DNA of 63,777 nucleotides, filler included, from Aduncisulcus paluster (GCA_024181965.1; 34 parts of 34 records of this genome joined end to end with filler, not necessarily neighbours in it); one strand, 5' to 3'; positions 11,313-55,770 are shown, counted from the whole stretch's first letter. Notes: generated by a model from the sequence alone, not told the origin. A program made the numbers and translations.

Positions 11313-11407
11313 AATTCATTGGTGAAACGGTTCCAAGATTCAGTCGTTACTTCTTCAAGGAACGGTTGGCTAAGTTCGTCCAGAACTTTTGGATTCTTTA
11401 CAGGCAT
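11313..11407 (-). mobile_element. Start of a retrotransposon gag-like ORF (not in the ORF track)
   Basis: MPVKNPKVLDELSQPFLEEVTTESWNRFTNE is homologous to 32638- MNSKRLFSEEIVRPFLDQVTTESWAQFVAE. Confidence 0.8.
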
Positions 11408-11429
11408 TTCTTCTACTCAAAAATATTTT

Positions 11430-11511
11430 TGTTAAAAGCTTATGCTTGCTTCAAATTTATTAAATAAAGGTGGATGTGATAATCTAAAAATAGAACGATG
11501 AGAAATTAACA
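11430..11511 (-). mobile_element. 5' LTR, 82 bp (TGTTAA...TTAACA), followed by palindrome CAAAAATATTTTTG (11418-11431)
   Basis: 6-bp inverted termini; internal TCTCA, CTATTTTTAG and AATAAATTTG shared with other LTRs; gag ATG 10 nt after the palindrome; truncates the upstream ORF. Confidence 0.8.
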
Positions 11512-11756
11512 CCAGTGACTATAGGACAACAAATAGCAACAACGTTTTCGAAAAGTGCCTTTGGGATGCCAAAGAATTCTCTAAATGTACTATCTAATTC
11601 TATTAATTCCAGTAAAAATCTATTACTAACAGTTCTTTCCCCAAATTGATCATCTCCAGTTTCTTCTTCAAATCCTGATTCTTCACTTAATCCAGATATG
11701 TCTCCAGACACATCATGAATTTCCTGCGACAATTCTGTTATAAATCTTCTGGCCAT
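11512..11756 (-). pseudogene. N-terminal fragment of an ORF resembling a PIF/Harbinger-type transposase HTH, cut by the LTR insertion
   Basis: MARRF...STFREFFGIPKALFENVVAICCP resembles the F+..F.+....F..L HTH motif; frame runs into the LTR and stops. Confidence 0.4.
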
Positions 11757-11778
11757 ATATTTTTTTAAAATATTAGAG

Positions 11779-11927
11779 CTGTTGCAAAAAAGACAGACTT
11801 GTTCCACAAAAACAGGACCTGTTGCACAACAACCGAGTTGTTGCACAACAAGCCGATTGTTTCAAAACAATAAAGTTGTTTCGCAACAACCCCTATTTAT
11901 TTGCAACAATACTATTGTTGCTAGAAA
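11779..11927. repeat. About 8 degenerate ~19-bp tandem units with quasi-palindromic core TTGTTGCACAACAA
   Basis: tgttgcaaaa / ttgttccacaaaa / tgttgcacaacaa / ttgttgcacaacaa / ttgtttcaaaacaa / ttgtttcgcaacaa ... Confidence 0.7.
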
Positions 11928-12665
11928 ATAAAGAAAGTCTGTTTATTACCTTATAGTTGCATAATCCGCGTAATTCCAAAATAATTGTAAAAATATTAAT
12001 ATTATTAAGTTTTATTAATAATTCATTTTATTTTTTTAATTTTTTTTCTTAATTTAAAAATATATAAAAAGACCTCGAAAAACGGCCACTTTACTTTATA
12101 AAATTGAAAAATTTGCCGGGATAAATCGGCAAAAAGGGACCCCCCTCAAAAATCACGGGAAAAAAGAGCAGTCGGGTTGGATAATCACCGGGGGGAGGGG
12201 GGTACTATCAGCATCCCCCGGTGATCATTTGAATTAAAATAAAGTATAAAAAAAAGATCATCTGTAATAATTATTCGAATATTAAATTATAATTAAAAAA
12301 TTTTTTTACATACCATTTTACCAAAAAAAAGACTTGCAACTATCCCACATAGACTTTTTGACGATCATAGATAATCAGTCATAAATAGTTTTATTCATTT
12401 CCAATAAAGAAGTTTTCTTATTTTTTTCATCAAAATTATTAGCCATTTAAGTGGTAAAATTGATTTTATTATGGCCTTGATAAGGTGCACTATATAAAAA
12501 CAATAATCAATAAATAAGAAGATATTTCTCTTTTAATTTGATTTATTATGATATTTTTATAATAANNNNNNNNNNNNNNNNNNNNNNNNNNNNNNNNNNN
12601 NNNNNNNNNTTAATTAATTAANNNNNNNNNNNNNNNNNNNNNNNNNNNNNNNNNNNNNNNNNNNN

Positions 12666-13026
12666 AATTAATATACGCTGTAACCGATAGATCCTTTTCC
12701 ATAATTACACCAGACAATGCCATATGAAGGTCAAACGAAGACGTTGACCCATCCAAAGAATAAATGGCCTTTTTAAACTTTTTTAACTCTTCAGAGGTCG
12801 AAATGGAATCAAAGCCCAAAATATCCTTCAATGAAGATAATAAGGCTGGATCAATAAGCCTATGCCAAGGAGAAGGGTTCGAAACTTTTGGGTTAGACTT
12901 ATAAGCATCGTAGCGTAAGAAAAAATCATTCAAATTCTCCATAGAATAACTTTTCAAACAAGGAATATCAACATGCGCCACAGTGCTTTCCGAAGAAGAC
13001 GTAGTACTACTAGTAGTTGCTGGCAT
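12666..13026 (-). mobile_element. Retrotransposon gag-like ORF, N-terminal part
   Basis: IPCLKSYSMENLNDFFLRYDAY...PWHRLI pattern parallels the 32638 gag; starts 10 nt after the LTR-adjacent palindrome. Confidence 0.7.
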
Positions 13027-13048
13027 TGTATTTTAGCAATAACGTTAT

Positions 13049-13276
13049 TGTTAGTTTATCTGGGATTTATGTCCGTGAACAAATTTATTAAAATAAAAGC
13101 GCAAAATCTCTTTACAATAATTTTTGGATCTCCCAGAAATGGAAGTCAAAAAAGTATTAATCTCTGCAAGGTGGCGACAATAATTAATTCGAATTATATT
13201 AATATAAAAATTAATATAATTATAATCCTAAAATAAAATAATAAAATAAACCATTGTAATATCAGTCCTGCTAACA
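13049..13276 (-). mobile_element. 5' LTR, 228 bp (TGTTAG...CTAACA), followed by palindrome CAATAACGTTATTG (13037-13050)
   Basis: 6-bp inverted termini; TTTTATTTTAATAAATTTG about 30 nt before the LTR end as in the other LTRs. Confidence 0.78.
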
Positions 13277-13495
13277 TTTGTTTGATAAGAATATAAGTAT
13301 TTGGACATATGGATCAAGAATCATGACGAATTCATGTCAAATACCTTGATCAGCAAATGATCAAGGCATATCCCAAATTTCTCAGGAAAATTAAAGCGAA
13401 AAAACAAAAAACATATCCTTCAAGATTCACTCTTTCATAAAATCAGAAGTGTTTGGAAATATTATTAACCTTCCCTCGGTCAAAGTCTCTGATAT

Positions 13496-14165
13496 CTACT
13501 CTTCAGAGTCCTTCTGAGCCTTTTCAGCTGCAGCCACAACCTCCAAGAACACCTGCTCAAGCGTTGTTCCACTAAGACTCCAATCGATGACCCCAATCGA
13601 AGTCTTCAGGGCCTCCAATTTCTCGAACAACCCTGCAACACGCCCCTTGATGACGTCTCCAGGGATGTCAAATTCGATAACTTGAGACACGACGCTGTTC
13701 ACGACAGCCTCAGGGATGAGTCCCTTGATTGTCTTTGTGGCAAGAGTGGTGTCAGGACATGACATGACCAACCTCGAACCCTTGTCGAACCTGTTCTTCA
13801 AGTGAGTGTGAGACCCACCAGCAATCACCCTTCCACTACTCATGATAAAGATACGATCAGCGAGAGCCTCAGCCTCCTCCATTGAGTGGGTTGTGATCAA
13901 AATGCATCTGTTCTGCTTGGCCTGCAAGAAGGCATTCCATAGCTTACGACGACTGTGGGGATCGAGACCCGTGGTGGGTTCATCGAGAAGAATTACCTCA
14001 GGATTTCCACACAAGGCCATTCCCACTGCCAGTCTCCTCCTCATTCCTCCACTGAGATGGGAAGATGGGATGATAGATTGATTCCCAAGACCAACAACAT
14101 CCAGAATAAACTGACAATGTTGCTGCTCGAGACGTTTGGGAACACCCTTGACACGACTGTAGAAA
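13496..14165 (-). CDS. ABCA-subfamily transporter, C-terminal NBD and regulatory domain (5'-partial)
   Basis: LSGGMRRRL, ILLDEPTTGLDP.SRR.LW, TTHSMEEAEALADRI, TTLEQVF. Confidence 0.95.
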
Positions 14166-14265
14166 NNNNNNNNNNNNNNNNNNNNNNNNNNNNNNNNNNN
14201 NNNNNNNNNTTAATTAATTAANNNNNNNNNNNNNNNNNNNNNNNNNNNNNNNNNNNNNNNNNNNN

Positions 14266-16576
14266 TCTTTCCTACAATTCTATCTCTGATCCTAGCTTGA
14301 TTTCCTCACTCCCTGCCTTCGAGAATTTGTCTCATATTTCCTTGGATAATAATGAAGTGTCGGATATTTCATTCTTGTCAACCATTGTGGATAGCATTGA
14401 TCGTCTTTCGTATATGAATGTTTCTAAGAATCTTCTTGACTGTGGAGATTCTGACGAGTGTTTCATTCTTTTGGATGACATTTCAACAAAAGATATGAAG
14501 GATGATGGTACTACTGTTGTGTTTGGAACTCAAGATACAACCTCAACATGTGGATCTGAGTTTTCGTCATGTGATTTCTTGGTATCTCATGAAGTCTGCT
14601 CCTTTAGTAGCTCTGGAACCGAGGAATGTAAATGTGCTGGAGAGTATTACCTTGATAGCTCAAACCACTGTATGCCTGCTTCATACGTTCCAAACTCCAC
14701 TTGTTCTGGATGTGGAGGAAACAGAGGAGAGTGTTCATATTCATCTGACCTTAGCACTGCCACATGTGAATGTTATGATGGGTGGTATGGAGATGATTGT
14801 TTCTCTGCCTGTCCTTTGTCCTCTGGATTGAGTCCTCTGATCTGTAGCGGAGATGTATATGGTTCTTGTGATACAGCAACTCATACTTGTGTCTGTGTGG
14901 TTAACTATATTGGATCTGCCTGTGAATTTTATTGTAATGATCTTGAGAATTGTGGTGAACACGGATATTGTGATATCGAATATGTTTCATCAGAAGAAGA
15001 TGGTGAAATCGTTATTTCTGAGGAACTTACTTGTACGTGTGATGAGGGTTGGTATGGTTCCAAGTGCCAAAGTGAATATCCTGTGGAGATAATTGTTGGG
15101 GAAGACGAGGATGGAAACCGTATTAAGGTGGATTATGTATGTGGAAAAGACCATNNNNNNNNNNNNNNNNNNNNCTCTGGATTGAGTCCTCTGATCTGTA
15201 GCGGAGATGTATATGGTTCTTGTGATACAGCAACTCATACTTGTGTCTGTGTGGTTAACTATATTGGATCTACCTGTGAATTTTATTGTAATGATCTTGA
15301 GAATTGTGGTGAACACGGATATTGTGATATCGAATATGTTTCATCAGAAGAAGATGGTGAAATCGTTATTTCTGAGGAACTTACTTGTACGTGTGATGAG
15401 GGTTGGTATGGTTCCAAGTGCCAAAGTGAATATCCTGTGGAGATAATTGTTGGGGAAGACGAGGATGGAAACCGTATTAAGGTGGATTATGTATGTGGAA
15501 AAGACCATTCATCAGTTGATAGTGATTATTCTTATCTTGCCGATCCAGATATTCTGCAATGTGATTGTAATTCTTATGGTTATGTCTTCCTTGACTCCGG
15601 ATTATGTATCGATCCTGCCACACATCCAGATTATAAGGATATTGGTGAAAATTCAACTGTTTGCTTGACATGTGGTCTTTCTGATGAGAGTCATGGTGCT
15701 TGCATATTTGTTGCCGAGGCAAATGAAGAAACAAACGAATCCGAACTTCATGCAAAATGTGAATGTGAATTTGGATGGGGTGAAGATCCTTACCATCCTG
15801 AGCTTGCTTCTTGTTCAACTAATGTCTGTATTCTCACATATGATGAAGGAAAATACAATATTTTAGATGAGTGTTCTTCCCACGGTTATTGTGAAGTTTC
15901 ATCATACTCTTCCATTTGTGAATGTGATGGTGGATATCGAGGTGTATCTTGCGAGCTTAAGATTCCAATTAAGATCCCTAAATTATATATTTTCATTGGT
16001 TCAGGGATTGCTTTTATTATAATAATGATTATTGTCATTGTGGCTACATATCGTAGGCTTAGGGATCAGAAATCTGAATCTTCAAAGGAACAAGATGGAC
16101 CTGTTCCATCTGTGTATGATTTGCCTGAGCTTGTGCCAATTGAAAGTTCCTCAAGCGAGTCTCAAATGGTGGAACAGGAACTTGATATTGCTGATAGAAG
16201 TGGTTCTATTCACAGCATTATTGATAGTGACCGGATTATTAAGCATGAAAATAGATCTGCAACTCACAGTGGAACTCCTAAACTCAATCCCATCACACCT
16301 GGGGTATCAAGTGTTCGCATCAAAGATACAGGGAGTCCAATGGCAATTTCATCGGGAGGAAGCTCGGGAGTGAGACGAAAGGTGAGGAAAAGGAAGAGAA
16401 GAGTTCCGATGAGAACTCATGTTGGAGAGTTTAGTCCCCATGTCATGGAGTCAATGGGATCAGCTGGTATTAGACCTGGATATCTGTTCTCACCAATTTC
16501 TATGACTTCTCCTGTACCCTCTTCCGAGCAACAAAATAGTGATAGTATTCACAGAGTTGTTATTAAGAATTTGTGA
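14266..16576 (+). CDS. Type I membrane surface protein with LRR, tenascin-like EGF repeats, one TM segment and a cytoplasmic tail (5'-partial)
   Basis: LxxLxLxxN repeats, many CxCxxGWYGxxC units, TM YIFIGSGIAFIIIMIIVIVATY then RRLR; the internal duplication around the 20-N gap is an artefact. Confidence 0.88.
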
Positions 16577-16581
16577 TCTAC

Positions 16582-17024
16582 TGTCAATCATTCTGATTAT
16601 GTCATTAATCTTGTCAAAAAAAAAACACCAAAACATTGGTTATTATCCAATTTTAGAGTAATTTGAAAAATGTGAATTCTAAAAATAGAATTTCTAAAAA
16701 TAGAAATTTACAAAATGAAAGTGGTGTTTTGATCCCATTTACACGGCCTAAACACCTGAGAAATGTGTGTTTGTTGTGAAAGACGATGTTTATTGAGATG
16801 AATAAAATTAACTTTCTTGAAATTCAATGATTTTGGACAACTCCTCGTTTTCATCGTTTCTATTGTTAGATCTATCTTTCGAAGCTTTCGAAGTGCTTTC
16901 CATCGTTGATAAGTGTTCTGTTGGCCTTTGAAGATGTTTTGGAGAGAACTTAACTCTGGGCATTGGTGATAGTCACCGTGACTTCCTGAGGAAAAGTATC
17001 TCATCCAAATTCAGCATCTACACC
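16582..17024. repeat. Second copy of the 3478-3919 dispersed repeat
   Basis: Near-identical sequence starting 5 nt after the stop codon of the EGF gene. Confidence 0.95.
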
Positions 17025-17125
17025 NNNNNNNNNNNNNNNNNNNNNNNNNNNNNNNNNNNNNNNNNNNNTTAATTAATTAANNNNNNNNNNNNNNNNNNNN
17101 NNNNNNNNNNNNNNNNNNNNNNNNG

Positions 17126-20100
17126 ACAAAAGAAATTGAAGCACTCATTGTTTCAATCAAAAGAACAGACTCTCGACCTGCCATTAAATCCCTTTATGAA
17201 GGATCCCATTCTCGTCTCAAGACTATCTTTGATGAGTTCACTTCTTCACCCTCATCTGCTGTCACATCCGCTCGAGATCTGTTCGCCCTTTGTTTCGAAT
17301 GCTTGTCCTTGTTCGTGAAGCATAAAGTTACAAAAGACGATGGAACTCCAGATGAGGATGATTTTGAGGTTATTCTGGATAGTTCTTCCATCCAGGATAT
17401 GATTGACTCTTTCTTGCCTTCAATGATCCGAGTTGAAGCTATTCTGAGAGTTGAACGAGAAGAAATGGAGGAAATGGAAGAAGAAGAAGAAGGAGCTAAA
17501 ACTGCTGAATCTAGAGTGAATTCCATTACAAAGACATTGTTCAGCATTCTCAGTATCGCAACAACAAGAAGTGTTCTATCTCAATGTATTGCCATTTTCC
17601 CCCAGATCTCCACTCTTCTCTCCAAGATGTTTATTCTCGGCCTATTTGAGAAACTTGATGATTCTTTTGTTGAGGATATCCTCCAGACATGTAGGAATAT
17701 TGCATTTGCCAAAGACGATCCCACCAAGAACTCCCTTTTATCCATTCTTCTCCCACATATCTTGCCATGGATGAAGAAGTATCCTGATAAGAAGTTCTTT
17801 TTCTTGTGGATAAATATCTTGAAGAATATCACTCTTGATAAGGATAATACCTTCTCTGATAAAGATCGTTCTTCACAACTTTGGTTTGTCTTCCACCCTG
17901 TCTTGGCTATTATCAAGGACACTGCTTCCAAAGGTATTACATTTGATGATGATGCTGTAATTTGTTGTTTGTGTTTCTTTGGTAACTTGAGTTGTATTCC
18001 TTCCCAAGCCATTGAAGTTCATGCTTGCATTAAAGATGGTCTTCTTGATAGCTGGTTTGAGATAGTGAAGAGGAAGAAAAGTGAAGGACTGGATCCTAAT
18101 AGTCAGGGAGTCATACACTGCTCTAAACTCATTTCCATGCTTTCCAGTGTCCCATCAATAATTCCTCAACTCTCTCCCAAATATGATGCCAACATGGAGT
18201 GGTGCAAGAAGAATGGAGGATGGAGTGGATATTATACAAGATATCTTGGTAATTGTTATCCTTCTCTGAAGAAATGGGTTGAATTAGTTGAAGCTATTAA
18301 GAAATGTCCTGACTCAGAATCATCCTCAATTCTCTACCACAAACATCGAGAAGATATCCTTTCTGTCTTCCTTGCATCCCAATCAAAGAGTGAGATTGAA
18401 GAGCACAAGAGAGAGATAGTGTTTTGTGTTGAGTGTTTAAGACGGTTTGCAGGACATGATATTGCTGGAAATCATATCTGTCTCCTAATACCTGATCTCA
18501 ACGATCTCATTGACACTTTCATTGATTATCTTTCAAGAATTGAGGAAATATTGGAAGAAGCTGTTGATGAAGAGTATTGTAGCATTTGTGTTTCTTATTC
18601 TTTCAAAGTTGAAGATAAATGGGATTCTTTCCTTCTCAAGATCCTTTCCACTTTCCATCGAATTCTTGAGAGAGGAAGCAAGAAGAAGTTATCTGATAAC
18701 ATCGTTCTAAATTTATTGATGACTCTCAGAAACATCTCTACTTTTTCCTCTCCTTCCACTCGATCCTCTATTTTCACCCTTATCAAACCATACGTCAGAG
18801 ATTGGTTGAGGATGTACGATAATAGTAAGTGCTATGGCCAATGGATGTTAATTTTATCATTTATTGTCATCTTAAGTGATAATACTTCCCCCAACAAATC
18901 CCTTTGTTCTGAAGCTTGGCCTCTTTTCCACCCTGTCCTTGATGTTGTTAAGAGAGAGTTTGTTGGGGACAAGATTATTGAGGATGAACATGAAGAATGT
19001 TTGCGATTCTTCTCCAACTTGTGTTGTGATCCAATACATACCCCCGAAATCTATGATAATATTAAGTATCTTCTTGATAGATGGTTTGAGGTTATCAAGA
19101 GGAAACAACATAAATGGGGAAGCCAATTCTGGTCCAAACTCATTTCCATGCTTTCCACTATCCCATCTCTTGTCCCTCAACTCTCTCCCAAATATGATAC
19201 CAACATGGAGTGGTGTAAGAAGAATGGAGGATTGCGTAATGATTATACAAGATATCTTGGTAATTGTTATCCTTCTCTGAAGAAATGGTCTGAATTAGTT
19301 GAAGCTATTAAGAAATGTCCTGACTCAGAATCATCCTCAATTCTCTACCACAAACACCGAGAAGATATCCTTTCTGTCTTCCTTACATTCCAATCAAAGA
19401 GTGAGATTGTAGAGCACAAGAGAGAGATTGTTCTTTGTGTTGAGTGTTTAAGATGGTTTGCAGGACATGATATTGCTGGAAGATATATCTTCCTCCCAAT
19501 ACCCGATCTCAACAATCTCATTGACACTTTCATTGATCATCTTTCAAGAGTGGAGGAAATATTGGAAGAAGCTGTTTATGAAGAGTATTGTAGCATTTGC
19601 GTTTCTTATTCTTTCAAAGTTGAAGATAAATGGGATTCTTTCCTTCTCAAGATCCTTTCCACTTTCCATCGAATTCTTGAGAGAGGAAGCAAGAAGAAGT
19701 TGTCTGATAATATTGTTCGATATTTATTGATAACTCTCAGATGCATCTCTAATTCTCCCTCTACTTCCACTCGATCCTCTATTCTCACCCTTATCAAACC
19801 ATATGTCAAAGATTGGTTGAGGATGTACAATGATAGTGAGTGTTATGGACAATGGATGTATATTCTATCATTTGGCACCACCTCAAGTGATGGTAAACCC
19901 CCCAACAAATCCCTTTGTTCTGAAGTTTGGCCCCTTTTCCACCCTGTTCTTGATCTTGTTAAGAGAGAGTTTGTTGGGGATAGGATTATTGTGGATGATC
20001 ATGAATTTGTTTTACTGTTCTTCTCTAACCTGTGTTGTGATCCTTCACATGCTCTTGTAATCTATGATAATGTAAAACATCTTCTTGATGGTTGGTTTGA

Positions 20101-20689
20101 GGTTATGAAGAGGAAACAACAAGAATGGGGAATCAAATACTGGTTCAATCTCATTTCCATGCTATCCACTGTTCCATCTCTTGTCCCTCAACTATCTCCC
20201 AAATATGATGACAAGATACTATGGTGCAAAGAAGAATGGTATTGTTCAACTCAAATCTATAACCAATACCTTTCCAACATTTCCTCCTTCGTATCTTCTT
20301 CATATCTCTCTTCAACTCTTTTCCATTCTGTTCCAATGGTTTCATTTCTCCCATCAATTGAGACATCTTTGTGTCCTGAGAAAGATGGATATTCATACGC
20401 TTCCCATGTATGTTCTGTTATGAATCTGCATAAAACTCCCGATCCTTCTCAATATCAAGAAGACAAAATCTCTTGCTATCATGATATTATCAGTGGAAAA
20501 GAAATGCAAATTCAACATGTTCTTAAACGTGATGGATCGAGTTCCCAAGATATCCTCACACACTCTTCTCTCATCCAATACACTTCTCCTCCCCAACACA
20601 TGCTTGTTAAGATGCCATTTGATGATGAGAGATCCTTGAGACAATCTGTGTATGATCTGATTGAACGCACAGGTGGAGGTGTTGAAGTG
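17126..20689 (+). CDS. Large alpha-helical (ARM/HEAT-like) protein with 337-aa tandem repeats; partial at both ends
   Basis: LISMLS..PS..PQLSPKYD recurs at a 1011-bp period (18125, 19136, 20147); paralogue at 35313-36533. Confidence 0.85.
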
Positions 20690-24354: not shown

Positions 24355-24620
24355 AATAGCCAGTGATTATGCAGTTAGATGATATGTTGTTGAGTTTATT
24401 TCATCATTCATTTGAGAATCCCCTTGGATAGTCGTTTTAATTAAATAATACCGATTTATAACGTGATTAAATTTTTAGCCACTTCCCGTGCAATTATTTT
24501 GCTATAAATTGCATAATCTTTTTTATTTCCTTGTATTTTACCAATATAATATATAAAATTATATTATTATTATATAAAGCCTCTAATGTGAAATTGAAGT
24601 TTTCTCTCTGTTAACATTTA

Positions 24621-30460: not shown

Positions 30461-30562
30461 NNNNNNNNNNNNNNNNNNNNNNNNNNNNNNNNNNNNNNNN
30501 NNNNTTAATTAATTAANNNNNNNNNNNNNNNNNNNNNNNNNNNNNNNNNNNNNNNNNNNNAG

Positions 30563-32060: not shown

Positions 32061-32638
32061 ATAGGAGGTTTTTGTGCAGGCGTTTCGGGTCCAACAAGCA
32101 ACTTCTCAGCCTCAAAAGCCATCATCTTTTTCACTTCTTTCACCGCGATTTGAGTGAGAGTCGGAATATCATGGGTGCCAGATGGAGCCATCGCAGACAC
32201 GCGTTCCTGAAGACGCTCGGGATGTAGTCCGTCACAGAAAAGCTTAGCCACCTTTTTTGGGTCAGGTTTGGCGATCGAACGGTTCAGAATCTTAGAGAAC
32301 TCCTGAGAGAACTTTAAGAACGAATCCATGGTTAGGGGTGAGATCATGTGAGTTATTCGGAGCTTGTCGTACAGCTCGATGTTCGAGGAAGAGGAAAAAA
32401 GGCTCTCGACCTCGAGGAAAGCGTGGTCTCGCTGCGATTGTAGAGTAAACTCCCCGACACCTGAAATAGTGGTAATGAAAGACAGCGCAGACACAGAGCA
32501 GAAGTGGGGCCAATGTTCTTTGCCTCCAAGGGAGAGGTAATGCTGAAATTCGGCTACAAACTGGGCCCAAGACTCGGTAGTGACCTGGTCCAGAAAAGGC
32601 CGAACAATCTCCTCGGAAAATAGACGCTTTGAGTTCAT
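32061..32638 (-). mobile_element. Retrotransposon gag ORF, N-terminal part
   Basis: P.L..VT.ESW..F...F..Y...GG and KLFCDGLHPERL capsid-like motif; starts 11 nt after the LTR palindrome. Confidence 0.78.
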
Positions 32639-32661
32639 AGATATTCGTTCAATAATATTAT

Positions 32662-32749
32662 TGTCGAAAACTTTTTTAAAGCAATCAAATTTATTGAAAA
32701 TAAAACAGATGGAGACTCTGATCTAAAAATAGATCATGAGAATCTAACA
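32662..32749 (-). mobile_element. 5' LTR, 88 bp (TGTTAG...TCGACA), followed by palindrome CAATAATATTATTG (32650-32663)
   Basis: Aligns with the LTR at 11430-11511 (TGTTA..TTCTCAT..TCTATTTTTAGAT...AATAAATTTGA); abuts a 5'-truncated gag on the opposite strand. Confidence 0.8.
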
Positions 32750-36533: not shown

Positions 36534-37115
36534 AATATCGAGATAGAAGTGTCAAAAAATAATGCTAAAATCGAAGAATATTTCACTTTCGTTTCATTCA
36601 TTTCTAAAAATAGAAATTCTAAAAATAGAATTGTTTTTTCCAAAATCCATCTATAACGGGTAAATTGGTGTCTAAACTGCTGTAATGTTTGGCATTGTCC
36701 CTTTATTAGAATAGAACATCCCTTGTATAAAATAGATGGAGAAGATTTCTGTTGTTCTGATGGAAATGATCGAAATAATTGACCATTCTTCTCAATAAAT
36801 CCAAGAATCAAGGAGAGAATCCCAAACTATCCTCATTTCTGAAGACTCTCCAGTCGAGAGGTGTTCTGGTCCTAAAGTAGTCTCCTCAGCTTCAGAAAGA
36901 TCCCTTCAATCAGTGATTCAACATGAATTAAGATGCTTTTATTGTTGTGAATAGGGCCAAAGAATGGTCAAAAAAAAGAGATACTCATTCGAAAAGTCGT
37001 GAAGGCAGTGACCATCATCAGAATGTTTCAATGGCAGAAGAGAGATTCGTTCAGCAGCCAATAATTTCTATTGGCAGAGAAAAAAACAAGGGAGAAAAGC
37101 CACAACATCCTTGGA

Positions 37116-40638: not shown

Positions 40639-40981
40639 CCAGCTTCTGCACTGGGGTTTCACTGATGTCGGAAGGAAAATCACCACTTCTACGACTTCTC
40701 ACTGTTTCGGCTCCTGAAACGCTTTCACGATCTTCCACTAGGCGCTGCTCCATTGTACCATCGGAATAAATTGTTGTAGTCACGTTAGGTCCATGTTTTT
40801 CACCATCATCAACCTGTTCATCATCTTCGGACGGAACTTCTTTTTCAGTAGAATTCACGGTAGTAGTAGGTGTTTCTGTCACCTTAGACTGTTCCAAATC
40901 ACTGTTTTGGGTTGATATTCCCTCGGCACGGGTCACTGCTTGTTGTTCCAACTGTTTCTGAGATCTCGTTAAAACAACCAT
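40639..40981 (-). mobile_element. Retrotransposon gag-like ORF start (low-complexity N-terminus)
   Basis: MVVLTRSQ start typical of gypsy gag; lies 43 nt after the LTR palindrome. Confidence 0.6.
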
Positions 40982-41037
40982 AATTTTTCACTGTACACGG
41001 TTAGTTTAAAATTCGTATTATGGAATTTTGATCAAAA

Positions 41038-41127
41038 TGTGGTATTACGTATAATAAACGATTTACAATTTATTGATATGACAGTTCACCGAACGTGTCT
41101 ATTTATAGATCCTGAGACATTACCACA
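41038..41127 (-). mobile_element. 5' LTR, 90 bp (TGTGGTA...TACCACA), followed by palindrome ATTTTGATCAAAAT (41025-41038)
   Basis: 7-bp inverted termini; TCTCAGGATCTATAAATAG and AATAAATTG at the same relative positions as in the other LTRs. Confidence 0.82.
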
Positions 41128-41973: not shown

Positions 41974-42073
41974 NNNNNNNNNNNNNNNNNNNNNNNNNNN
42001 NNNNNNNNNNNNNNNNNTTAATTAATTAANNNNNNNNNNNNNNNNNNNNNNNNNNNNNNNNNNNNNNNNNNNN

Positions 42074-42691: not shown

Positions 42692-43088
42692 TATTTAAAA
42701 TATTTTGAAAATAATTATTTTCAGTATTTTTATTAAAAAATTAATCATTTCAATGAGATGATCTCATGTAGTACAATGTACATGACATGTACTGTACTGA
42801 TTTTTCCTTGCCAAATTGAATTGGAAGATTTGGGGCTCAAGGATTTGGCATTCAAATTGCTCAAAAATAAATGATTCAGATCGTAACATATACATTTGGC
42901 ATGTGACACATAGATTCGATGTATAGATTGTATCACATTGCTGTCACGTCAAGTTCCCAACGGTTGAGAACAGACGCCATCTACAAGAACAGATAACCTT
43001 AAACATTTCTTTGCTTGGCACATAGTTGTTTGTTTGACACATTATAACATTCTAACAACTACACGACCGAAGGTACTGGCAGAGAAAT

Positions 43089-45214: not shown

Positions 45215-45314
45215 NNNNNNNNNNNNNNNNNNNNNNNNNNNNNNNNNNNNNNNNNNNNTTAATTAATTAANNNNNNNNNNNNNNNNNNNNNNNNNNNNNN
45301 NNNNNNNNNNNNNN

Positions 45315-46451: not shown

Positions 46452-46552
46452 NNNNNNNNNNNNNNNNNNNNNNNNNNNNNNNNNNNNNNNNNNNNTTAAT
46501 TAATTAANNNNNNNNNNNNNNNNNNNNNNNNNNNNNNNNNNNNNNNNNNNNC

Positions 46553-47826
46553 ATGACATATTGTAACACCTCTCGTAAGTTGCTTGCATTCCTCAACTCA
46601 CTCTCATCATCGCCTTCCCTTCTCATTGCCACCACAAGGATGCATGGATGTGGATACGATGGGACTGTCGTGGCATCTGTGAAGTTGGAGATGGATCTTC
46701 CTAACCGACCGATGTCATTCTACATCTCTTACTCCTTGCTCGAGGCATGTCCCGGGGAGTTCCATTTCGGTGCGTTGTCATCGAACCTGTCTTCCCTCGT
46801 CTCCTCGTCCTCGCACGCATCTTCCTTGCCCGTGCTGTTCTGTGAATTGATGCAACGTTCGACTTCGTATAGCATGAAAGTGCTGAACCCTGAGGCTGCA
46901 CACATCATGAACAAGAGGAATGTCTCCATGAAGATCCGAGCCCTGAAGGAAGGTATAATGCATGCCATTGTTCGATCCTTGGAACAAGATGTTGTCAAGA
47001 AGTATTATGATAAACCAAAGCAATCGTCCGGTGAGTTGTTTGCTTCCTCCCGTCATGTTCAGTATCCATCCTCTGTTTCCTCCTCGTTGTTCCCCCATTC
47101 ATTCTCTGACACATTGGCACCACCACCACCGCAGCTCTCTTTGACATTGACCAAGAGGGGCGAAAGTAACATTGACCTCGACACATCTGTGAAGGAGGAG
47201 GAGGAAGGTGATGATGATGCGAATGATCGCAACGATGATGATGCTGTCGGGCAATCTATGGAAGGTATTAACACCCACTCATCTCGCTCCACCGAAAAGC
47301 AAGAAGAAGAAGCTCCCATCGCTGGTCATGTTTCCCTTGCACATCGCTCTGCTCTTGAGCATTATCTTGGCGTGTGCATGGATGAATGTGAGGTTGATAT
47401 CCAAAAGGTTCGAGACGGGATCGGTAACGTTTTGCGTGAGGAACGTTATATGAAAGAGGCCAGCCTGCGGAATGTGTGGAAGATGCATAAGGATGACCTC
47501 AAGGACGACCTCAAGGATGACCTCAAGGACGAAGAGCATGAGAGTATGTCCGTCCCATTGTCATCTACAGGTATGTTTGATAAGCATTGTGGATGGTATG
47601 TCTGTGGGTGTGAGGCTGCCTCGAGTCCTCATGATGGTGTTACTTCCTTGTCTGCACAGGGGCTGCACTGTCTTCGTGTCACTGATGTCAACATGCGGGA
47701 GCAGAGGGTATCATTCTTGGTGATTCTCATGTATAACAACCCTGAGTATCGCTGTGTGGATGTCAGTGACTCTACCCTTGCGGACCTGTTCATTCCCCCA
47801 TTGTCATCGCTGCCACAGCTTTGCAA
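46553..47826 (+). CDS. Hypothetical protein (internal fragment)
   Basis: Frame of about 425 codons open across the whole contig; no recognised motif. Confidence 0.6.
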
Positions 47827-48373
47827 NNNNNNNNNNNNNNNNNNNNNNNNNNNNNNNNNNNNNNNNNNNNTTAATTAATTAANNNNNNNNNNNNNNNNNN
47901 NNNNNNNNNNNNNNNNNNNNNNNNNNGTATTAAATCTTGTTTTCTTAAATTATATCTTTTCAGATAAATACATAATAACAAACACTAAAATCGAGTTTGC
48001 TTAGCTTACAGCGTTTCAAAAAGCCTGGAGGAGAAGGAGAAGAGGACTGGTCGACCATAAATCGAAAGTCCACCATTAAAATTGGAAATACTATTTTTCC
48101 CTCAGGTTTCAATGACAATTATAAAAGAAAACAGGTTAAAATAACTTATACATGAAGAAAAAACAAAAATAATTAACAGACCAACAAGATTTCAAGCAAA
48201 CAAAGGAAAAAATTTCATTTTTGCTAAAAGTTATTCTGATATCTATGAAATCCGACACAGAGAAATAACTAATAATAATGTTGTTATTTATGTAATTAAA
48301 TTCGAGATAACTGTAGGTAACACCATAATTTTCTATCAAATATGTTTAGTCTAAAATATTATTAATTCAATTT

Positions 48374-48445
48374 TGGTTCAATTGGTAAAGTATCTGTCTT
48401 GTGAAATACTTTCCTCGGGTTCGAAACCTGGTGTCGCTTCCTTTT
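48374..48445 (+). promoter_or_regulatory. Degenerate tRNA-like Pol III unit (A box, B box, T4) immediately upstream of a PPT
   Basis: TGGTTCAATTGG (48374-85), GGTTCGAAACC (48418-28) in a pairable T-arm, TTTT at 48442-45; acceptor and anticodon stems do not pair. Confidence 0.55.
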
Positions 48446-48447
48446 CT

Positions 48448-48599
48448 AAAAAGGGCAGGATGTAATATACCTTATATTATATCATATTTTTATTATTTAT
48501 TTTACTCTATTCATTATTCTCAGAGATCTATTTTTAGGAGTTTCGGTTCATGTGTTTATTCTTAAATAAATTTGTCTGCGCTTTACTAAGCCTGTCACA
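48448..48599 (+). mobile_element. PPT (48448-48460) plus 139-bp 3' LTR (48461-48599, TGT...ACA)
   Basis: AAAAAGGGCAGGA|TGTAA; contains TCTCAGAGATCTATTTTTAG and AAATAAATTTG as in the 5' LTRs; no palindrome after its end. Confidence 0.75.
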
Positions 48600-48986
48600 C
48601 GGATATATGAATCAAAATATAATCATGTTTTGATCCGAGATCAAATATGGACCATTTTGAAGTTTTGATCAATATTGGAGCAAATATGATCAATGAAATG
48701 GGATCAAATTTAATCCATATTTACTTGAAGATCAGAATTGGATCAAATTTTGATCTGAGAAAATGCTCCACAAATGATCTTGGACCATTTTCGGACAAAA
48801 GTGCGCGGCTATGCACTGGTGTGCCATTATCATCGACTAAGTAAATAGTACGATTTAAACGAATTTTTTACATAATAATTACAATGTACATATTATAATA
48901 TACATCCAATATAAATCATATATCAATTATACTACGAAATATTTTATTTATTTATTACATTTTATAATTATTTTATATTATCGTTA

Positions 48987-49060
48987 CCCTCCGTAGTCTA
49001 ACTGGAAGACCGGCATCCTCTTATTCCGTAAACCCCGGGTTCGAATCTCGCTATCGGCCA
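48987..49060 (+). ncRNA. tRNA-like sequence (pseudo-tRNA or SINE head)
   Basis: TAGTCTAACTGGAAGAC with a perfect D-stem, GGTTCGAATCT T-loop, ends in CCA at 74 nt; acceptor and anticodon stems non-canonical. Confidence 0.55.
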
Positions 49061-49321
49061 ATTTCGAGAGTAGAACAACCGGCAAGTACCGGGCAAACGA
49101 TGCTACCCCAAAGGTTAAACTCGGTGTTCTTACCGTGAGATGTCGTCTATAGCCGATATTCGGAATTCTCACTGGCCTTGAATGCCCGATGTTAGATTGC
49201 AGCGTTAAGGGGGTTTGAAAGNNNNNNNNNNNNNNNNNNNNNNNNNNNNNNNNNNNNNNNNNNNNTTAATTAATTAANNNNNNNNNNNNNNNNNNNNNNN
49301 NNNNNNNNNNNNNNNNNNNNN

Positions 49322-49794
49322 TTCACCGCCAAGCTGACACCCAGTCTGATCATGTTTCATCAGCTCGAACATCCTCATCTACAACTCAGTCAGGTGGTTC
49401 GTCTTCACTTCACCGCCAAGCTGACACCCAGTCTGATCATGTTTCATTAGCTCGAACACCCTCATCTACAACTCAGTCAGGTGGCTCGTCTTCACTTCAC
49501 CGCCAAGCTGACACCCAGTCTGATCATGTTTCATTAGCTCGAACATCCTCATCTACAACTCAGTCAGGTGGCTCGTCTTCACTTCACCGCCAAGCTGACA
49601 CCCAGTCTGATCATGTTTCATTAGCTCGAACATCCTCATCTACAACTCAGTCAGGTGGCTCGTCTTCACTTCACCGCCAAGCTGACACCCAGTCTGATCA
49701 TGTTTCATTAGCTCGAACATCTTCATCTACAACTCAGCCAGGTTGCTTATCTTCACTTCACCGCCAAGCTGACACCCAGTCTGATCATGTTTCA
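49322..49794 (+). repeat. 87-bp coding tandem repeat, about 5.4 copies (29 aa: HRQADTQSDHVSLARTSSSTTQSGGSSSL)
   Basis: CACCGCCAAG at 49324, 49411, 49498, 49585, 49672, 49759. Confidence 0.97.
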
Positions 49795-50501
49795 TCTCAA
49801 GCTACACAGAACACCAATGAGACCCCTCTTCTTACAGTACGACTCCCGGAGTTCCCTCTTGATCATTCAAGTCCACCGGTGCCGCAAACATCAACTGAAT
49901 TACAACTAGTAACAACTCACCCTCGTGGAGACTTTAACAACTTGAGTGAAGTCATATCGGATCTCAGACAGCAGGAGTCACAAGATCCACTGACGGAGCT
50001 CCCAAGACTGGACAGAAGGACGATATCCCGTATGGAGCATCACATCAACCATCTTGTACCTGAACTAAGACTGGATACCGATCCTCTAATGCCTCCCACG
50101 CACGAACGAACCATCCCGGACAGGCCTAATACTGAGCCAGAAACAAGAATACGACTGAGGGAACTTACCCTACCCGTCGAAATCAAGGATGGCCTTCTCC
50201 GTGACTATATCCTGGCGATCAAAGATGGAGATGACATCGATGCAATGATGGATATCCTACGAAAAGAGGCAAAAAGACGATGGGCCGCTCTAACGGCACA
50301 AAGAAGATCACGAAGAGAGGATGTAACTGACAATACCTCATCAATCCCAAGGAGAATCGAATCGCTTGATGACATCCCTGATGATCTCCCACCAACACTT
50401 CAAATGACCCTCCATTACTCCATTATGATGGAGAATATCCCTATGATAAACCGCCTGTTAGGTGAATACAGAAAGGAAAGAGAGCTGAGCAAAAAGACAT
50501 A
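49324..50501 (+). CDS. Hypothetical protein with 29-aa repeats, possibly a mobile-element ORF; partial at both ends
   Basis: The repeat frame is continuous with ORF 49879. Confidence 0.6.
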
Positions 50502-50601
50502 NNNNNNNNNNNNNNNNNNNNNNNNNNNNNNNNNNNNNNNNNNNNTTAATTAATTAANNNNNNNNNNNNNNNNNNNNNNNNNNNNNNNNNNNNNNNNNNN
50601 N

Positions 50602-52158
50602 CAATCGGGTCTTTTGACAAATAAGGCATGTTGTTACCGTTTCGTGAATGCTCTTTTTTAAATTAGTCCACGTTAATCCAAGGCCATGAATAAACTTTAC
50701 CATAGCACTTTCTCCATGATGTCCTACCAAATGAGAACCATGGGCTAACTTCAATATCTCTTTCTTCAACTTATCTGCCTTTTCAGGGATTATCAAAAAC
50801 CCATCTTTTGTAACGAATAAACCATCTTCCCTCATCAATCCAGAATAATTCTTCATTTCCGTTTGCTGAGCAATGCGAACCTTTCCAATAAAAGAATCAT
50901 CTAATTCGGTATAAATAGAAGCCAATAATTTTGGTTGTCCTTGGTGAAACCGGGATAATACATCGGCGATGATATTATCCTTGCCAGGTACATGCTCGAT
51001 TTCGAATTCAAACTCCTCTAATCTCAAGCGCCATCTCGTTAACTTGGCATTAGGGGCTTTCTGCAGATATACCAAGTTACGATGGTCCGTCTTGAGCATA
51101 AATGGTCGGCCTCTTAAGTACGATTCACAGTTCAAGACTGCCATTACTACTGCATAGGCCTCTTGTTCAACCGTACTCCAACGGGATTGAACTTCAGTCA
51201 ACTTCTTCGACATGAACTGAATTGGTCGTTCTTTACCATCAATCGGATCGCGCTGCATCAACACAGCTCCGATTCCCACTGACGATGCATCAGTATACAA
51301 TATAAGGTCTCCTGATTCTTTTAAAGGGGCTAAGATTCTCCCTTTCTGTAACTCATCAATGACCATTCTAAATGCCTTCTCTTGCTCCTCAGTCCACGTC
51401 CAGTCCAATTCCTTATTTAATAACCGAGTTATTGGTTCCATTACAACTGAGTAGTTCGGAATGAACTCTCTGAAGTAATTCATCAATCCAACAAAGGACT
51501 GTACCTCTTTTCTCGACGTTGGGGGAGATAACAAAGCCAGATCAGAAACTCTGGATGGGCTTATACGTCTTCCTTCTTCAGATATCACCCATCCGAGATA
51601 CTCAACTTCGCGAGTAGCAAAAGAACATTTGCTTTTGTTCAATCTCAATCCATATTCAGCTAACCTCCCCAAAACTTCCTTCATCAACCTCATGAATTCC
51701 TGTTCAGTCTCTGAATAAATCACAATATCATCCAGATAAACTAGAACCCCATGATACAATAGGTCTGCAAATAGTTCCGAAATCACCTTTTGAAAATATG
51801 CAGGGGCAGTCGTTATCCCAAAGGGCAAAACATTAAACTCATAGAGCCCCAAGGGTGTAGTAAACGCGGTCAATGGTCGAGAAGTTTCTTCTACTTTAAT
51901 CTGGTGGTAGCCATGCTGCAAATCGAGAGTTGAGAAGTATTTAGCTCCTACCAGATGCATCAATAAATCATCTATCCGCGGCAATGGATAGCGGATAGGA
52001 ATAATGTGGTTATTCAACTCACGATAATCCACACATAATCGGTATGTACCATTCTTTTTTGGTACTAAAACAATGGGAGAAGCATATGGAGATGTCGAAG
52101 GGCGGATAAATCCCTTATCTAACAAGTCCTGGAGAATCTCTTCCAGAATCTGTCTCCT
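50602..52158 (-). mobile_element. Ty3/gypsy pol fragment: RT, RNase H and integrase HHCC
   Basis: SPYASP, LCVDYRELN, YLDD, YTDAS..GIGAVL, EQEAYA, TDHRNL, N.IADVLSR, H....GH...C..CQ; RT-RH-IN order. Confidence 0.97.
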
Positions 52159-53470
52159 NNNNNNNNNNNNNNNNNNNNNNNNNNNNNNNNNNNNNNNNNN
52201 NNTTAATTAATTAANNNNNNNNNNNNNNNNNNNNNNNNNNNNNNNNNNNNNNNNNNNNCATCTTGAAGGAGATCGAAAAGAAGAGGGCGTGGCCCGAAGG
52301 GGCAAGCCCTTCCATCGCGGCCAGAAACAGGCAGTTCTGAGTCCGATCGATTTAGTTTTTATAGGTATTCAAGGTATTTAGGATGTATTATTGATGATTT
52401 GTAAGGACTGGGTTTTGGCATATTACTGACTATCAGCGTATTAAAGGGCTGGATAGAAGCGAAAATCCGAGGTAAACAAATGAATTAAAGGTCTATAAAG
52501 ACAATATTGAGCATTATAAAGGAAGCAGCTCATACTATGCTAGTAGTATTGAGAAAAAGACAATGACTCTATATATAATGAAGAAGATCCCAAGATTTGG
52601 ATCTTATACAGTGAAATGTCACACTGTATAGTATGAAATGACCTTCTAAGAACATATCTTGTAAAGAAATATGGATAATTGAGTCAAGCTCACGGAAGTG
52701 CTGCTAGGAAAATTTTTCAGAATGCATGTTGTGATTAATCCTTGTCAGATTTAAAAGAATAATCGGCTTAATATACAATTATTTCATAGAGAAAATATTA
52801 AAATTGAATTATTAGTGGACGAAAAGGTTCCAACAAAGATGTTACTAACATGTTATTAGTAATAACATCGATACCCATCCGTTGGACTTGTGAGTCACAA
52901 GTACACATCATCAGAAATGAAGTATAACAGAATCGAAATCGTTTTGAGGACTGTACACCCTCAGAGCCAATGAGAGTATGACAATTATAAAGGGAGTGGT
53001 TTTAAAGGTATAGTTTCCACTTCAACACGTTATTTATGTTTATAGATATATTAGAAGGAATTTTAAATTGTGATTGGGTTTTTAAATATATATTTTTCCC
53101 TTTCAATGAGATGAATCAAATCATAGAAGAGTAATTATTCCATCAAAGAATTTAGGATGTCTTGGAATAGGTATTTAAACAATTGGGTAATTAAGATACA
53201 GAACTTCGATAATAATATAAGATAGAAAAAGCAAAGGAATACAAAGCACGTATATAATAACACTGGGAGAAGAAGTAATAAGATAGAACCTTGAAGCCAT
53301 AGAGGATGCGCGCCCGATATGACCTTCATACGTTTTACTTAGTAACAGCTCCTTTGAATTATGTCCAGTTATATATATTGTTGTTCCAACAGGTAAGGTT
53401 TTACAGTGATGTGCTGAACGTACAGTGAGAGACCTTGGCATGAACAATGTAGAATCTCCTGATCCTCACT

Positions 53471-53598
53471 GAGGAGGGAAGGGAAGTGTGTTTGAGTTTC
53501 AGCAAGAATCAGAAGATTCAAGATAGAGTTTTGCGTTCAATCGAGATTTGAGTTCTTTAGAGTTCAAGACGCTCAAGGAAAGAAGTTGTGGCTACACA
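53471..53598 (+). mobile_element. PPT (53471-53486) plus candidate 112-bp 3' LTR (TGTGT...ACACA)
   Basis: GAGGAGGGAAGGGAAG directly followed by TGTGT; ACACA one base before the contig end. Confidence 0.55.
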
Positions 53599-53699
53599 GN
53601 NNNNNNNNNNNNNNNNNNNNNNNNNNNNNNNNNNNNNNNNNNNTTAATTAATTAANNNNNNNNNNNNNNNNNNNNNNNNNNNNNNNNNNNNNNNNNNNN

Positions 53700-55227
53700 A
53701 ATACCAAGATATAATAAATATTTTTCACTTATATCATCCAAAATAAAACCTGCCAAATCCAATGACGTAACAGTTGCTGGCACAGGAGACAAGTCATACA
53801 CGCTCGTGCCACTCAGATCCAACGTCGTCAGCGCGGGGAGGGCTGACCCATCGGACAGGGCAAGACTCGAAAAGAACCCGGGGAACGTGACGTTCGTGCG
53901 CCCAGAGATGGAAAGCGTGGTCAGGGACGATGGGAACATGCCTTGCACAGTCACATCATAGTGATTGTCAGAGTCGAACAGAGGACTCAGGGACGACAGC
54001 TGAGTCGCCCAGTAGTCGCCAGAAGAAACGGCTCCAACAGTCAAGTACAATGCACGCAGAGACGTCAGACGCGAGAAATCAGTGTTCGGCGCAATGTCAA
54101 TGTTATTCAGCGTAAGCGTCTCCAGGCTCGTGGGAAGATCATCGATGTCACTGGTGCTCAGTTGTTTGGACACAGAGTCCGTGTTGCTCACATACAGCGT
54201 CGTAAGGTTCGTCGCTGCACTCAGGCCTGCGAAGGAGTCAACAAAGTATGTGTTCAACGAGGTTAGGTGTTGGAGGTCACCTGGGGTTAAGTCATCACAA
54301 TGGGCAGCATGATCAAGGACAAGACAGATGTCGTTCCGAAGGTTGGCATCGGGCATAAATGTTTTAAATTGTGTACACCTCTCAGAAGAGTCAAAAGTCA
54401 AATATCCATCCCAACATTCAGACTCCCAAGTATCAGACGAAGTCTCGGAACATATCTCATAATTACTGAAATCAGGCACTGGGGAACACATGCACGTTTG
54501 CTCAGACTCAGTGGACACGAGGGAGAAGGATGAGTTCGTGAAGTATGAAGACAGGATGGTGTTCACATCAGCAATGTCACAGATCAGATTGTCACTGATA
54601 TCGAGGTACTCCAATACACCGGTGGGCAAGAGTGTCGTTTCGTTCTCATTGATCAGAACAGACACATCAGAGATCTGGTTGGAATGGACATCGATGCTCG
54701 TTAATGAGGGGACAGTTGAAATTGAAGAAATGTCAATAATACCATTGGAACTAAGATTTAGTGTAATCAACTCAGTGAGCGTTGAAAGTGGAGAGATGTC
54801 AACAATACTATTCGAGCTGAGGTCAACAGTCGACAGAGTACCAACATGCTCCAGACCAACAAGAGAGGAGACACTGCTCGATGAACACGTCAGAGACGAG
54901 GATGCAGGGATGCTCTTCAAGGAGGAAACTCCAAACGCATACGTCCCATCGCCAACAGAAACCTTGTCAGCAGCATCGATCAGGCCGGACACACAGCCAT
55001 GCAAGCCCACATCAGGCACAACACTAGCACACCCATGAGTGCCATCGGAGTTCACACGGCATTCGGAGCCATACTCACACCCACCAGAACAGTCGGCAGA
55101 ACGTGTGCATGTGAATGTGTCCGAATCAAAGTACGTGTAATATGAGTCGCTCATGCAGGTCACATTCCAGGTGTCGGAGGAAGGAGCAGTCTCAGAGCAC
55201 ACGAAACCCTCAGAGATGGCTGCAATC
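53700..55227 (-). CDS. LRR plus Cys-rich surface protein fragment (internalin-like repeats)
   Basis: LSSNSIVDISPLSTLTELITLNLSSN repeats; Cys modules shared with 45315-46451. Confidence 0.87.
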
Positions 55228-55327
55228 NNNNNNNNNNNNNNNNNNNNNNNNNNNNNNNNNNNNNNNNNNNNTTAATTAATTAANNNNNNNNNNNNNNNNN
55301 NNNNNNNNNNNNNNNNNNNNNNNNNNN

Positions 55328-55644
55328 GAGACAGTCTTTTGGGGTGCAGACCCGATTTCAACTTCTTCATCTTCAGAGCATTTCAGGACTTCTTGCACAT
55401 CACTGTTGGTGCGGGGCTCTTCGGTATCTTCATCTTTGGAGTCCTTTGGAGCGATTGGTGCAGATTCGACAGTGTCAAATTTGTCGATTTCAACAGGTGC
55501 AGAATCAAACTTTTCTTCAACACTTTTAGGAGTAACGAACTTTTGTTTGATCTTTTTCGTAATCAAAATTACTTTTTCTGACCCATCTTTTGATGGAGCA
55601 ACGGCTTTGGCGGTTTTGGCGCTTTTGATTCCCTTGGGGCTCAT
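55328..55644 (-). mobile_element. Gag-like ORF start (K/E-rich low complexity) downstream of an LTR
   Basis: ATG 49 nt after the LTR-adjacent palindrome; no diagnostic motif before the contig end. Confidence 0.5.
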
Positions 55645-55707
55645 AATGGCTTAGTAATAGGTAGCAAAAATAAAGGTAGATAGTATCTTATCGCAATTTA
55701 ATTAAAT

Positions 55708-55770
55708 TGTGGTATACCTTCCTAGGGGTAATGTGATACAATTTACTTATGGGGAATCTGACCTACCACA
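55708..55770 (-). mobile_element. LTR, minimally 63 bp (TGTGGTA...TACCACA), followed by palindrome CAATTTAATTAAATTG (55694-55709)
   Basis: 7-bp inverted termini identical to those of the LTR at 41038-41127; AGTAAATTG at the poly(A)-signal position; 5' boundary could extend to 55894. Confidence 0.68.

Follow-up and report, generated by a model that had tools for sequence, protein, structure and literature searches.

Perfect palindromes at the primer-binding position of apparent Ty3/gypsy retrotransposons in Aduncisulcus paluster

In the canonical two-jump replication of retrotransposons with long terminal repeats (LTRs), the minus-strand primer anneals directly 3' of U5, and in the standard scheme minus-strand synthesis starts from the point at which the LTR stops. 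To our knowledge, a minus-strand start without tRNA has been solved only for Tf1. In a 63,777-base stretch of Aduncisulcus paluster DNA (GCA_024181965.1; the whole stretch is called the window below), five apparent 5' ends of Ty3/gypsy LTR retrotransposons, S1 to S5, carry perfect palindromes where a primer-binding site (PBS) would lie. Among the closest described systems, Tf1, Tf2, and Tj1 are, like the elements studied here, gypsy-type or chromoviral and without a tRNA PBS, and their primer is released by RNase H from their own RNA, which is cut within a duplex of RNA (PMC7175516, PMC4600332). The PBS of Tf1, whose RNase H cuts the RNA duplex to make the primer (PMC7175516), is not palindromic and pairs with the transcript's first 11 nt, whereas the sites of S1–S5 pair with themselves. 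In the Skipper chromoviruses of dictyostelids, the canonical PBS is replaced by a degenerate polypyrimidine stretch, and no complement is reported in the left LTR (PMC5006619). GalEa elements are fungal copia elements without a PBS, described by Donnart et al. in 2017 (PMC5445492). They carry a 9-bp sequence, mostly CTGATCAGT or CTAATTAGT, that is palindromic together with the final A of the LTR, and a complementary second box (CHSeq2) 12–41 bp downstream (PMC5445492). The authors found no complement in U5 and no priming model that fitted (PMC5445492), and these reports leave the priming of both Skipper and GalEa open (PMC5006619, PMC5445492).

At all five sites in the window, a perfect palindrome of 14–16 bp lies directly at the junction between the LTR and the leader, which is the position of a PBS (Table 1). 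An earlier reading made from the DNA letters alone (the sequence-only reading) had reported these palindromes, and every one of them was recovered at the same place, overlapping the LTR terminus and followed after 10, 10, 11, 43, or 49 nt by an ATG. In four of the five (S1, S2, S3, and S5), the overlap is the terminal CA of the LTR, 2 nt, and the palindrome ends with TG; S4 overlaps the LTR by 1 nt, the final A only. The position is the real signal. The loci were defined independently, by polyprotein starts, integrase, and shared LTR motifs, and the presence of a palindrome at the same junction in five of five cannot be chance. Compared with shuffled sequence, palindrome counts in the window give a divided picture. 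The CA..TG form stands out, with 4 occurrences vs 0.35 expected and 0 of 300 shuffles reaching 4. Palindromes of at least 14 bp as a whole do not, with 10 vs 5.1 ± 2.4 in 300 dinucleotide shuffles, 14 of which reach 10. The other five palindromes of at least 14 bp are found within coding regions, within the S2 LTR, or downstream of a presumed host stop codon. The longest perfect palindrome of the window, TGAAAATAATTATTTTCA (18 bp, 42706–42723), is located 15 nt past the stop codon of a coiled-coil open reading frame (ORF) and is unrelated to any LTR.

A sixth LTR segment, at 48461–48599, is related to the LTRs of S1–S3. Its terminal CA is followed by CGGATATATG, with no palindrome of at least 12 bp, as the sequence-only reading also had it, and with no ORF. 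The next stretch, 48600–48780, is rich in TTTTGATC and GATCAAAT repeats, which resemble the core of the S4 palindrome.

The reading frames after the palindromes point to Ty3/gypsy LTR retrotransposon 5' ends, in agreement with the earlier assignment. At S1, the 31 remaining codons align to residues 1–31 of P0001 (48% identity, E 3e-8), a gag-pol protein of 995 aa. The S3 ORF shares 78% identity with the N-terminal portion of P0001, and the two N-termini, read side by side, agree from the first residues. P0001 has the domain order zf-CCHC (two zinc knuckles), Asp_protease_2, RVT_1, RT_RNaseH, and Integrase_H2C2. The relative of S2, P0011 (591 aa), has the S2-like region at residues 8–123 and an aspartyl protease at 334–418. 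By these alignments, the ATG after the palindrome is the polyprotein start in S1 and S3 and a gag-protease start in S2. At S4 and S5, the ORFs have matches to unnamed proteins only, and the leads are a Ty3_capsid match of E 0.024 for P0003 and protein-atlas scores of about 0.91. The S4 ORF may be gag, and for S5 these weak leads hint at gag as well. Pfam at E up to 10 gave no match for four ORFs after palindromes. The gypsy-type order of reverse transcriptase (RT), RNase H, and integrase (IN) is found in contigs 27 and 34, and at least one element, S5 in contig 30, adjoins what its Pfam matches indicate is an integrase with a chromodomain, a chromovirus feature. All-against-all BLASTP of the window ORFs gave no further gag N-termini and thus no further 5' ends in the window.

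A tRNA-type site is missing, as had been claimed. Between the LTR end and the ATG, none of the five sites has a TGG; the sole TGG belongs to the ATGG of the S4 start codon. Nor would complementarity to tRNAs be expected to yield five different sequences, each of them symmetric. Scans of the window for tRNAs and Rfam families gave no match, and tRNA-like pieces suspected at 47927–49221 were dropped after a permissive Rfam scan of this interval came back empty. A Tf1-type complement is likewise absent: in the five sites, no LTR stretch of at least 9 nt is complementary to the 45 nt after the LTR, which agrees with the earlier statement that no convincing one exists. The best complements are 7–8 nt long, involve inconsistent palindrome arms and LTR positions, do not occur in S4, and are at chance level. 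A second complementary box like CHSeq2 was not found within 90 nt, the nearest match, at +84 in S2, being a 9-mer that has 1 mismatch, and no Skipper-type polypyrimidine stretch is present at the sites. Priming by a poly(A) tail, considered for S1 (CAAAAA/TTTTTG), was rejected because S2–S5 do not fit it, and an origin of the palindromes from 2-LTR junctions was rejected since the right flank is not an LTR start.

The energetics favor a duplex of two molecules over a folded single one. As RNA at 37 °C, the five sites give 0 to -0.6 kcal/mol for the hairpin vs -10.8 to -15.3 kcal/mol for the homodimer. The complementarity spans the central four bases, which would be dispensable for a hairpin loop, and it ends sharply at both ends of the palindrome. 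Flanks of 12 nt pair no better than shuffled ones, with 53, 270, 80, 35, and 143 of 300 shuffles doing at least as well. The snap-back of the palindrome onto U5, one of two priming modes offered in the sequence-only reading, was rejected because the hairpin is worth about 0 kcal/mol and pairing with U5 does not extend past the CA. The other mode, a duplex between two genomes, would fit both the modeled thermodynamics and the logic of the site. The related palindromes S1, S3, and S2 also show how the sites changed. S1 and S3 differ solely at the paired positions 4 and 11 (A-T to T-A), and S3 and S2 solely at the paired positions 7 and 8 (TA to CG). These are two compensatory pair changes and zero one-sided ones, while the neighboring LTR and leader sequences of S1–S3 are widely diverged. 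This comparison supports the earlier suggestion that the conserved trait is symmetry, not sequence.

The sequence-only reading knew of no description of such a site. In this respect it did not hold: the fungal GalEa palindrome was reported in 2017 (PMC5445492), and GalEa is a partial precedent, with a mechanism that is open there too. Our literature search for a palindromic PBS returned only the GalEa report and a paper on terminal-repeat retrotransposons in miniature (TRIM) that cites it, and a search by genus name found no literature on Aduncisulcus retrotransposons. The Conserved Hairpin Site of GalEa resembles the present sites in having neither a tRNA-type PBS nor a Tf1-type U5 complement, and its post-LTR palindrome likewise includes terminal LTR sequence (2 nt here, 1 nt in S4). 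The central hexamers TGATCA and TAATTA reported for GalEa (PMC5445492) recur in the S4 and S5 palindromes. There are also differences. The GalEa palindrome is 10 bp long and nearly fixed in sequence in the main text of the report, whereas here there are five sequences of 14–16 bp; GalEa has CHSeq2, whereas S1–S5 have no second box. GalEa is copia-type and belongs to Pezizomycotina, whereas S1–S5 have the gypsy-type order (RVT_1, with integrase after RNase H) and come from a protist. Skipper differs in having a polypyrimidine stretch where S1–S5 have the palindrome.

How could such a site prime? Since the primer anneals directly 3' of U5, it would pair with the palindrome site, and a primer complementary to the palindrome would carry the palindrome's own sequence. 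Because the site is self-complementary and its changes are compensatory, the simplest primer would be the corresponding site on another genomic RNA. With five different sequences, the only evident origin that we can infer for such an RNA is the same site in another RNA copy of the element. We tentatively propose, as possible rather than probable, that priming takes place at the palindrome site, on a duplex formed by two sense genomic RNAs, once one of them has been cut. In this scheme, the 14–16 nt palindrome starting in the terminal (C)A would be the PBS, and two sense genomic RNAs would pair through it as a 14–16 bp duplex. One strand of the duplex would be cut, by analogy with the RNase H cut of the RNA duplex in Tf1, and the 3'-OH of the cut strand would be extended over the U5-R of its partner, which would amount to Tf1-like self-priming in trans. 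About half of Tf1 cDNA keeps a copy of the primer past the LTR end (PMC11042837). If the primer copy were kept here as in Tf1, the leading CA of the palindrome could supply the integrase processing site. A primer that is the site of the sister RNA would explain selection on symmetry rather than on sequence.

The LTRs are very short. Their lengths run from 63 bp (S5) to about 230 bp (S2), the others being 82–139 bp; 63 bp is unusually short for an LTR of autonomous type. The segments have TG..CA ends and terminal inverted repeats, and by alignment the six (S1–S5 and 48461–48599) have one architecture: TG, ~15 nt, (GA)TCTATTTTTAG(A) or TCTATAAATAG, and ~25 nt in the 5' part, followed by A(A/G)TAAATT(T)G, 20–35 nt, and ACA in the 3' part. 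All four occurrences of AATAAATTTG in the window are inside these segments, the one in the S2 LTR at 13080–13089. Reads of a public sequencing run were placed on contig 30 only, by 31-letter words. The bin with the 63-bp S5 segment has a summed word depth of 49445 vs about 2600 over pol, ~19x. A contig of a second run has the purine tract AGAAGGAGGAGGG directly before the TG of the S5 segment, which fixes the 5' boundary of this LTR and places the segment also at an element 3' end; this run, of the same sample and possibly of RNA, contains almost none of the window's words and covers the S5 LTR only, from another copy. A run contig with the leader and the palindrome (depth 5630) ends 28 nt into the S5 segment, and from these sequence data the high-copy part probably begins near 55706, at the CA ± 2 nt. 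In the run contigs, a second S5-type copy has the LTR and the palindrome in common with S5 and diverges directly after the palindrome into an unrelated leader, as would be expected of a cis-acting site carried along by the LTR. The contig in which pol, LTR, and gag follow each other can be an assembly collapse or a real tandem pair with one common LTR; Tf1 makes tandem pairs that share one LTR by an integrase-independent route (PMC11042837).

The word depth over the S5 leader and N-terminus is 3–9 times that of pol. The first ~60 residues after the S5 palindrome (55330–55647) are common to P0002 and P0003, and the rest of both proteins differs. These data point to relatives, mosaic or non-autonomous, that have the S5 LTR, the palindrome, and the gag start in common.

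Short palindromes in the 5' leader pair two genomic RNAs in retroviruses (dimerization initiation site, DIS) and in Ty1 (PAL); these are shorter, are located in hairpin loops, and are additional to a PBS. The palindromes described here could be such a dimer-linkage or packaging site only, with another, unrecognized primer. The homodimer is indeed strongly favored over the hairpin, and palindromic dimerization sites in retroelement leaders are discussed in the GalEa report (PMC5445492). We nevertheless regard this as unlikely, because the primer has to anneal directly after U5, and S1–S3 leave just 10–11 nt before the ATG, without TGG or LTR complement. In addition, a DIS is normally located in a hairpin loop besides a PBS, as the same source describes (PMC5445492), but there is no flanking stem here. 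A retroviral-type DIS has loop display and a separate PBS; S1–S5 have no stem beyond chance and no separate PBS.

Two further explanations are weaker. In the first, cis self-priming of Tf1 type, the transcript's 5' end in the LTR would loop back to pair with a single arm of the palindrome. In its favor, the elements share the gypsy type with the Tf1/sushi group, and at least one of them the chromodomain as well; in S1, S3, and S5, moreover, part of the palindrome can pair with LTR stretches of 7–8 nt. But such matches are no more than chance would give in about 80 x 45 comparisons of AT-rich DNA, the arms and LTR positions involved differ, S4 has none, and Tf1 uses 11 nt (PMC7175516). The need for a palindrome would also be left unexplained, and we hold this explanation to be improbable. 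Just as improbable is a site that acts at the DNA level, either a symmetric site for a dimeric protein or a promoter/initiator just upstream of the ATG. The palindromes are AT-rich, in S1–S3 they lie 10–11 nt before the ATG, and the host intergenic regions are apparently compact. Against this, the five sequences differ and the compensatory pair changes maintain base pairing rather than any recognition sequence; no presumed host ATG has one of the other five palindromes of at least 14 bp upstream of it; and a transcript starting there would lack R. Finally, it is barely credible that the palindromes are incidental or lie inside the LTR with the true PBS after them: about five palindromes of at least 14 bp are expected by chance in the window and the 3' boundary was set without an LTR pair, but all five occur at the same junction of independently defined loci, the sequence past the palindrome also lacks TGG, the related LTR at 48461–48599 ends in CA without a palindrome, and the run contig that ends 28 nt into the S5 LTR fits the high-copy start inferred near 55706.

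Several points weigh against priming by a duplex of two genomic RNAs. Beside the observed position, symmetry, covariation, missing tRNA-type and Tf1-type complements, and preference for duplex over hairpin, the priming itself, the RNA-RNA pairing, and the origin of the 3'-OH are inferred steps. The sample is five sites on small unplaced contigs of one window, where palindromes of at least 14 bp are just ~2x as frequent as by chance. The palindrome of the second S5-type copy has a 1-nt insertion, so that five of six copies are perfect when this run-contig copy is included. The tRNA test consisted of the TGG check at the five sites and the tRNA scan of the window. A short Tf1-type pairing with the transcript 5' end is conceivable. 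There is no complete element and no LTR pair among the window contigs: no LTR recurs inside the window and no contig has both LTRs. The 3' boundary of the LTR rests on the TG..CA rule, one palindrome-free relative, and the inference from the end of the run contig, and where contig 30 passes from pol to the LTR, the run offers an alternative path and the purine tract is weak. Moreover, plus-strand strong-stop DNA with a copy of the palindrome at its 3' end could self-fold, a cost that the proposal leaves unexplained.

The window consists of 34 small contigs of 1.1–5 kb each, joined by linkers N44-TTAATTAATTAA-N44. It is a bin of unplaced pieces, and adjoining contigs are not genome neighbors. 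All five elements are on the - strand. About a quarter of the contigs have retroelement pieces, gypsy type throughout. The remaining contigs carry long, intron-poor presumed host ORFs, including kinases, leucine-rich repeat (LRR) and epidermal growth factor (EGF) proteins, a proteasome subunit, eIF3c, and an ODAD1-like coiled coil. The nearest named public proteins are hypothetical proteins labeled Aduncisulcus paluster by a source, and the host is a protist with apparently compact intergenic regions. Metagenome scans with the S3 Gag and P0001, and a viral-contig scan with RT-RNaseH-IN, gave no relatives. The S3 LTR is inserted head-to-head beside a truncated + strand gag-protease-RT piece, and upstream of the S2 LTR is an ABC-transporter fragment. 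A small presumed-host ORF without Pfam match reads into the S1 LTR from upstream and terminates at the TAG of the TCTATTTTTAG motif.

With at most 1 mismatch, TCTATTTTTAG has 17 matches in the window vs 2.5 expected. It occurs once each in the LTRs at 11484, 32723, and 48527, and beyond the LTRs at 3574–3599, 16679–16704, 36604–36629, and 59415–59459, as 2–3 tandem copies 15–17 nt apart. The stop codon of a - strand ORF directly precedes it in contigs 3 and 31, and convergent ORFs flank it in contigs 18 and 31. It is a candidate for a host 3'-end or terminator signal that is also carried by the LTRs. Contigs 3 (3606–3905) and 9 (16711–17010) have a stretch in common with identical 100-aa translations and are probably overlapping or duplicate contigs. 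An open frame of 1188 aa at 17126–20689 has internal repeats and lacks a Pfam match; over its C-terminal 350 aa it shares 36% identity with an ORF of contig 18 (35313–36530).

Table 1. Features of the five 5' ends, the related LTR, and other retroelement pieces in the window. Junctions are written in element orientation, and a slash marks the LTR end.
Feature	Position	Strand	Details
S1 LTR, 82 bp, TGTTAA...TTAACA	11430..11511	-	carries TCTATTTTTAG and AATAAATTTG
S1 palindrome CAAAAATATTTTTG	11418..11431	-	..TTAACA/AAAATATTTTTG, 10 nt, ATG; homodimer -10.8 vs hairpin 0.0 kcal/mol
S1 polyprotein N-terminus, cut by contig end	11315..11407, ATG 11405-11407	-	alignment to P0001
S2 LTR	13049..13276	-	3' end firm; 5' start inferred from TGTTAG/CTAACA inverted ends
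S2 palindrome CAATAACGTTATTG	13037..13050	-	..CTAACA/ATAACGTTATTG, 10 nt, ATG; homodimer -15.3 kcal/mol
S2 gag-like ORF	12667..13026, ATG 13024-13026	-	relative P0011
S3 LTR, 88 bp	32662..32749	-	shared architecture
S3 palindrome CAATAATATTATTG	32650..32663	-	..TCGACA/ATAATATTATTG, 11 nt, ATG; homodimer -12.0 kcal/mol
S3 Gag N-terminus	32063..32638, ATG 32636-32638	-	P0001 similarity; gag-like in protein atlas
S4 LTR, 90 bp, TGTGGTA...TACCACA	41038..41127	-	carries TCTATAAATAG and CAATAAATTG
S4 palindrome ATTTTGATCAAAAT	41025..41038	-	..TACCACA/TTTTGATCAAAAT, 43 nt, ATG; homodimer -12.6 kcal/mol
S4 ORF after palindrome	40640..40981, ATG 40979-40981	-	matches only the unnamed partial protein P0004
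S5 LTR, 63 bp, TGTGGTA...TACCACA	55708..55770	-	word depth and second context
S5 palindrome CAATTTAATTAAATTG	55694..55709	-	..TACCACA/ATTTAATTAAATTG, 49 nt, ATG; unchanged in one run contig
S5 ORF after palindrome	55330..55644, ATG 55642-55644	-	N-terminal region shared with P0002, P0003
Integrase core and chromodomain ORF upstream of S5 LTR	55960..57171	-	Pfam rve 3.6e-12, Chromo 9.5e-12
Related LTR, 139 bp	48461..48599	+	AAAAAGGGCAGGA before; TCTATTTTTAG and AATAAATTTG in common with S1-S3
zf-CCHC, protease, RVT_1	contigs 4, 15, 16		
RVT_1, RNase H, integrase zinc domain	contigs 27, 34		
Integrase core, chromodomain	contig 30		

In this study, we found a self-complementary sequence where the primer of an LTR element has to anneal, and such a site sharply restricts the possible primers. 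Beside Skipper and GalEa, our case contributes five different palindromes, with compensatory changes among them, from gypsy-type elements that have extremely short LTRs and belong to a little-studied protist lineage. It is conceivable, if doubtful, that priming by a sibling genome arose independently in the gypsy elements of a fornicate-like protist and in the copia elements GalEa of fungi. If our proposal is true, genome dimerization and priming would be one step, and dimer-primed reverse transcription would be a third general mode beside tRNA priming and Tf1-type cis self-priming.

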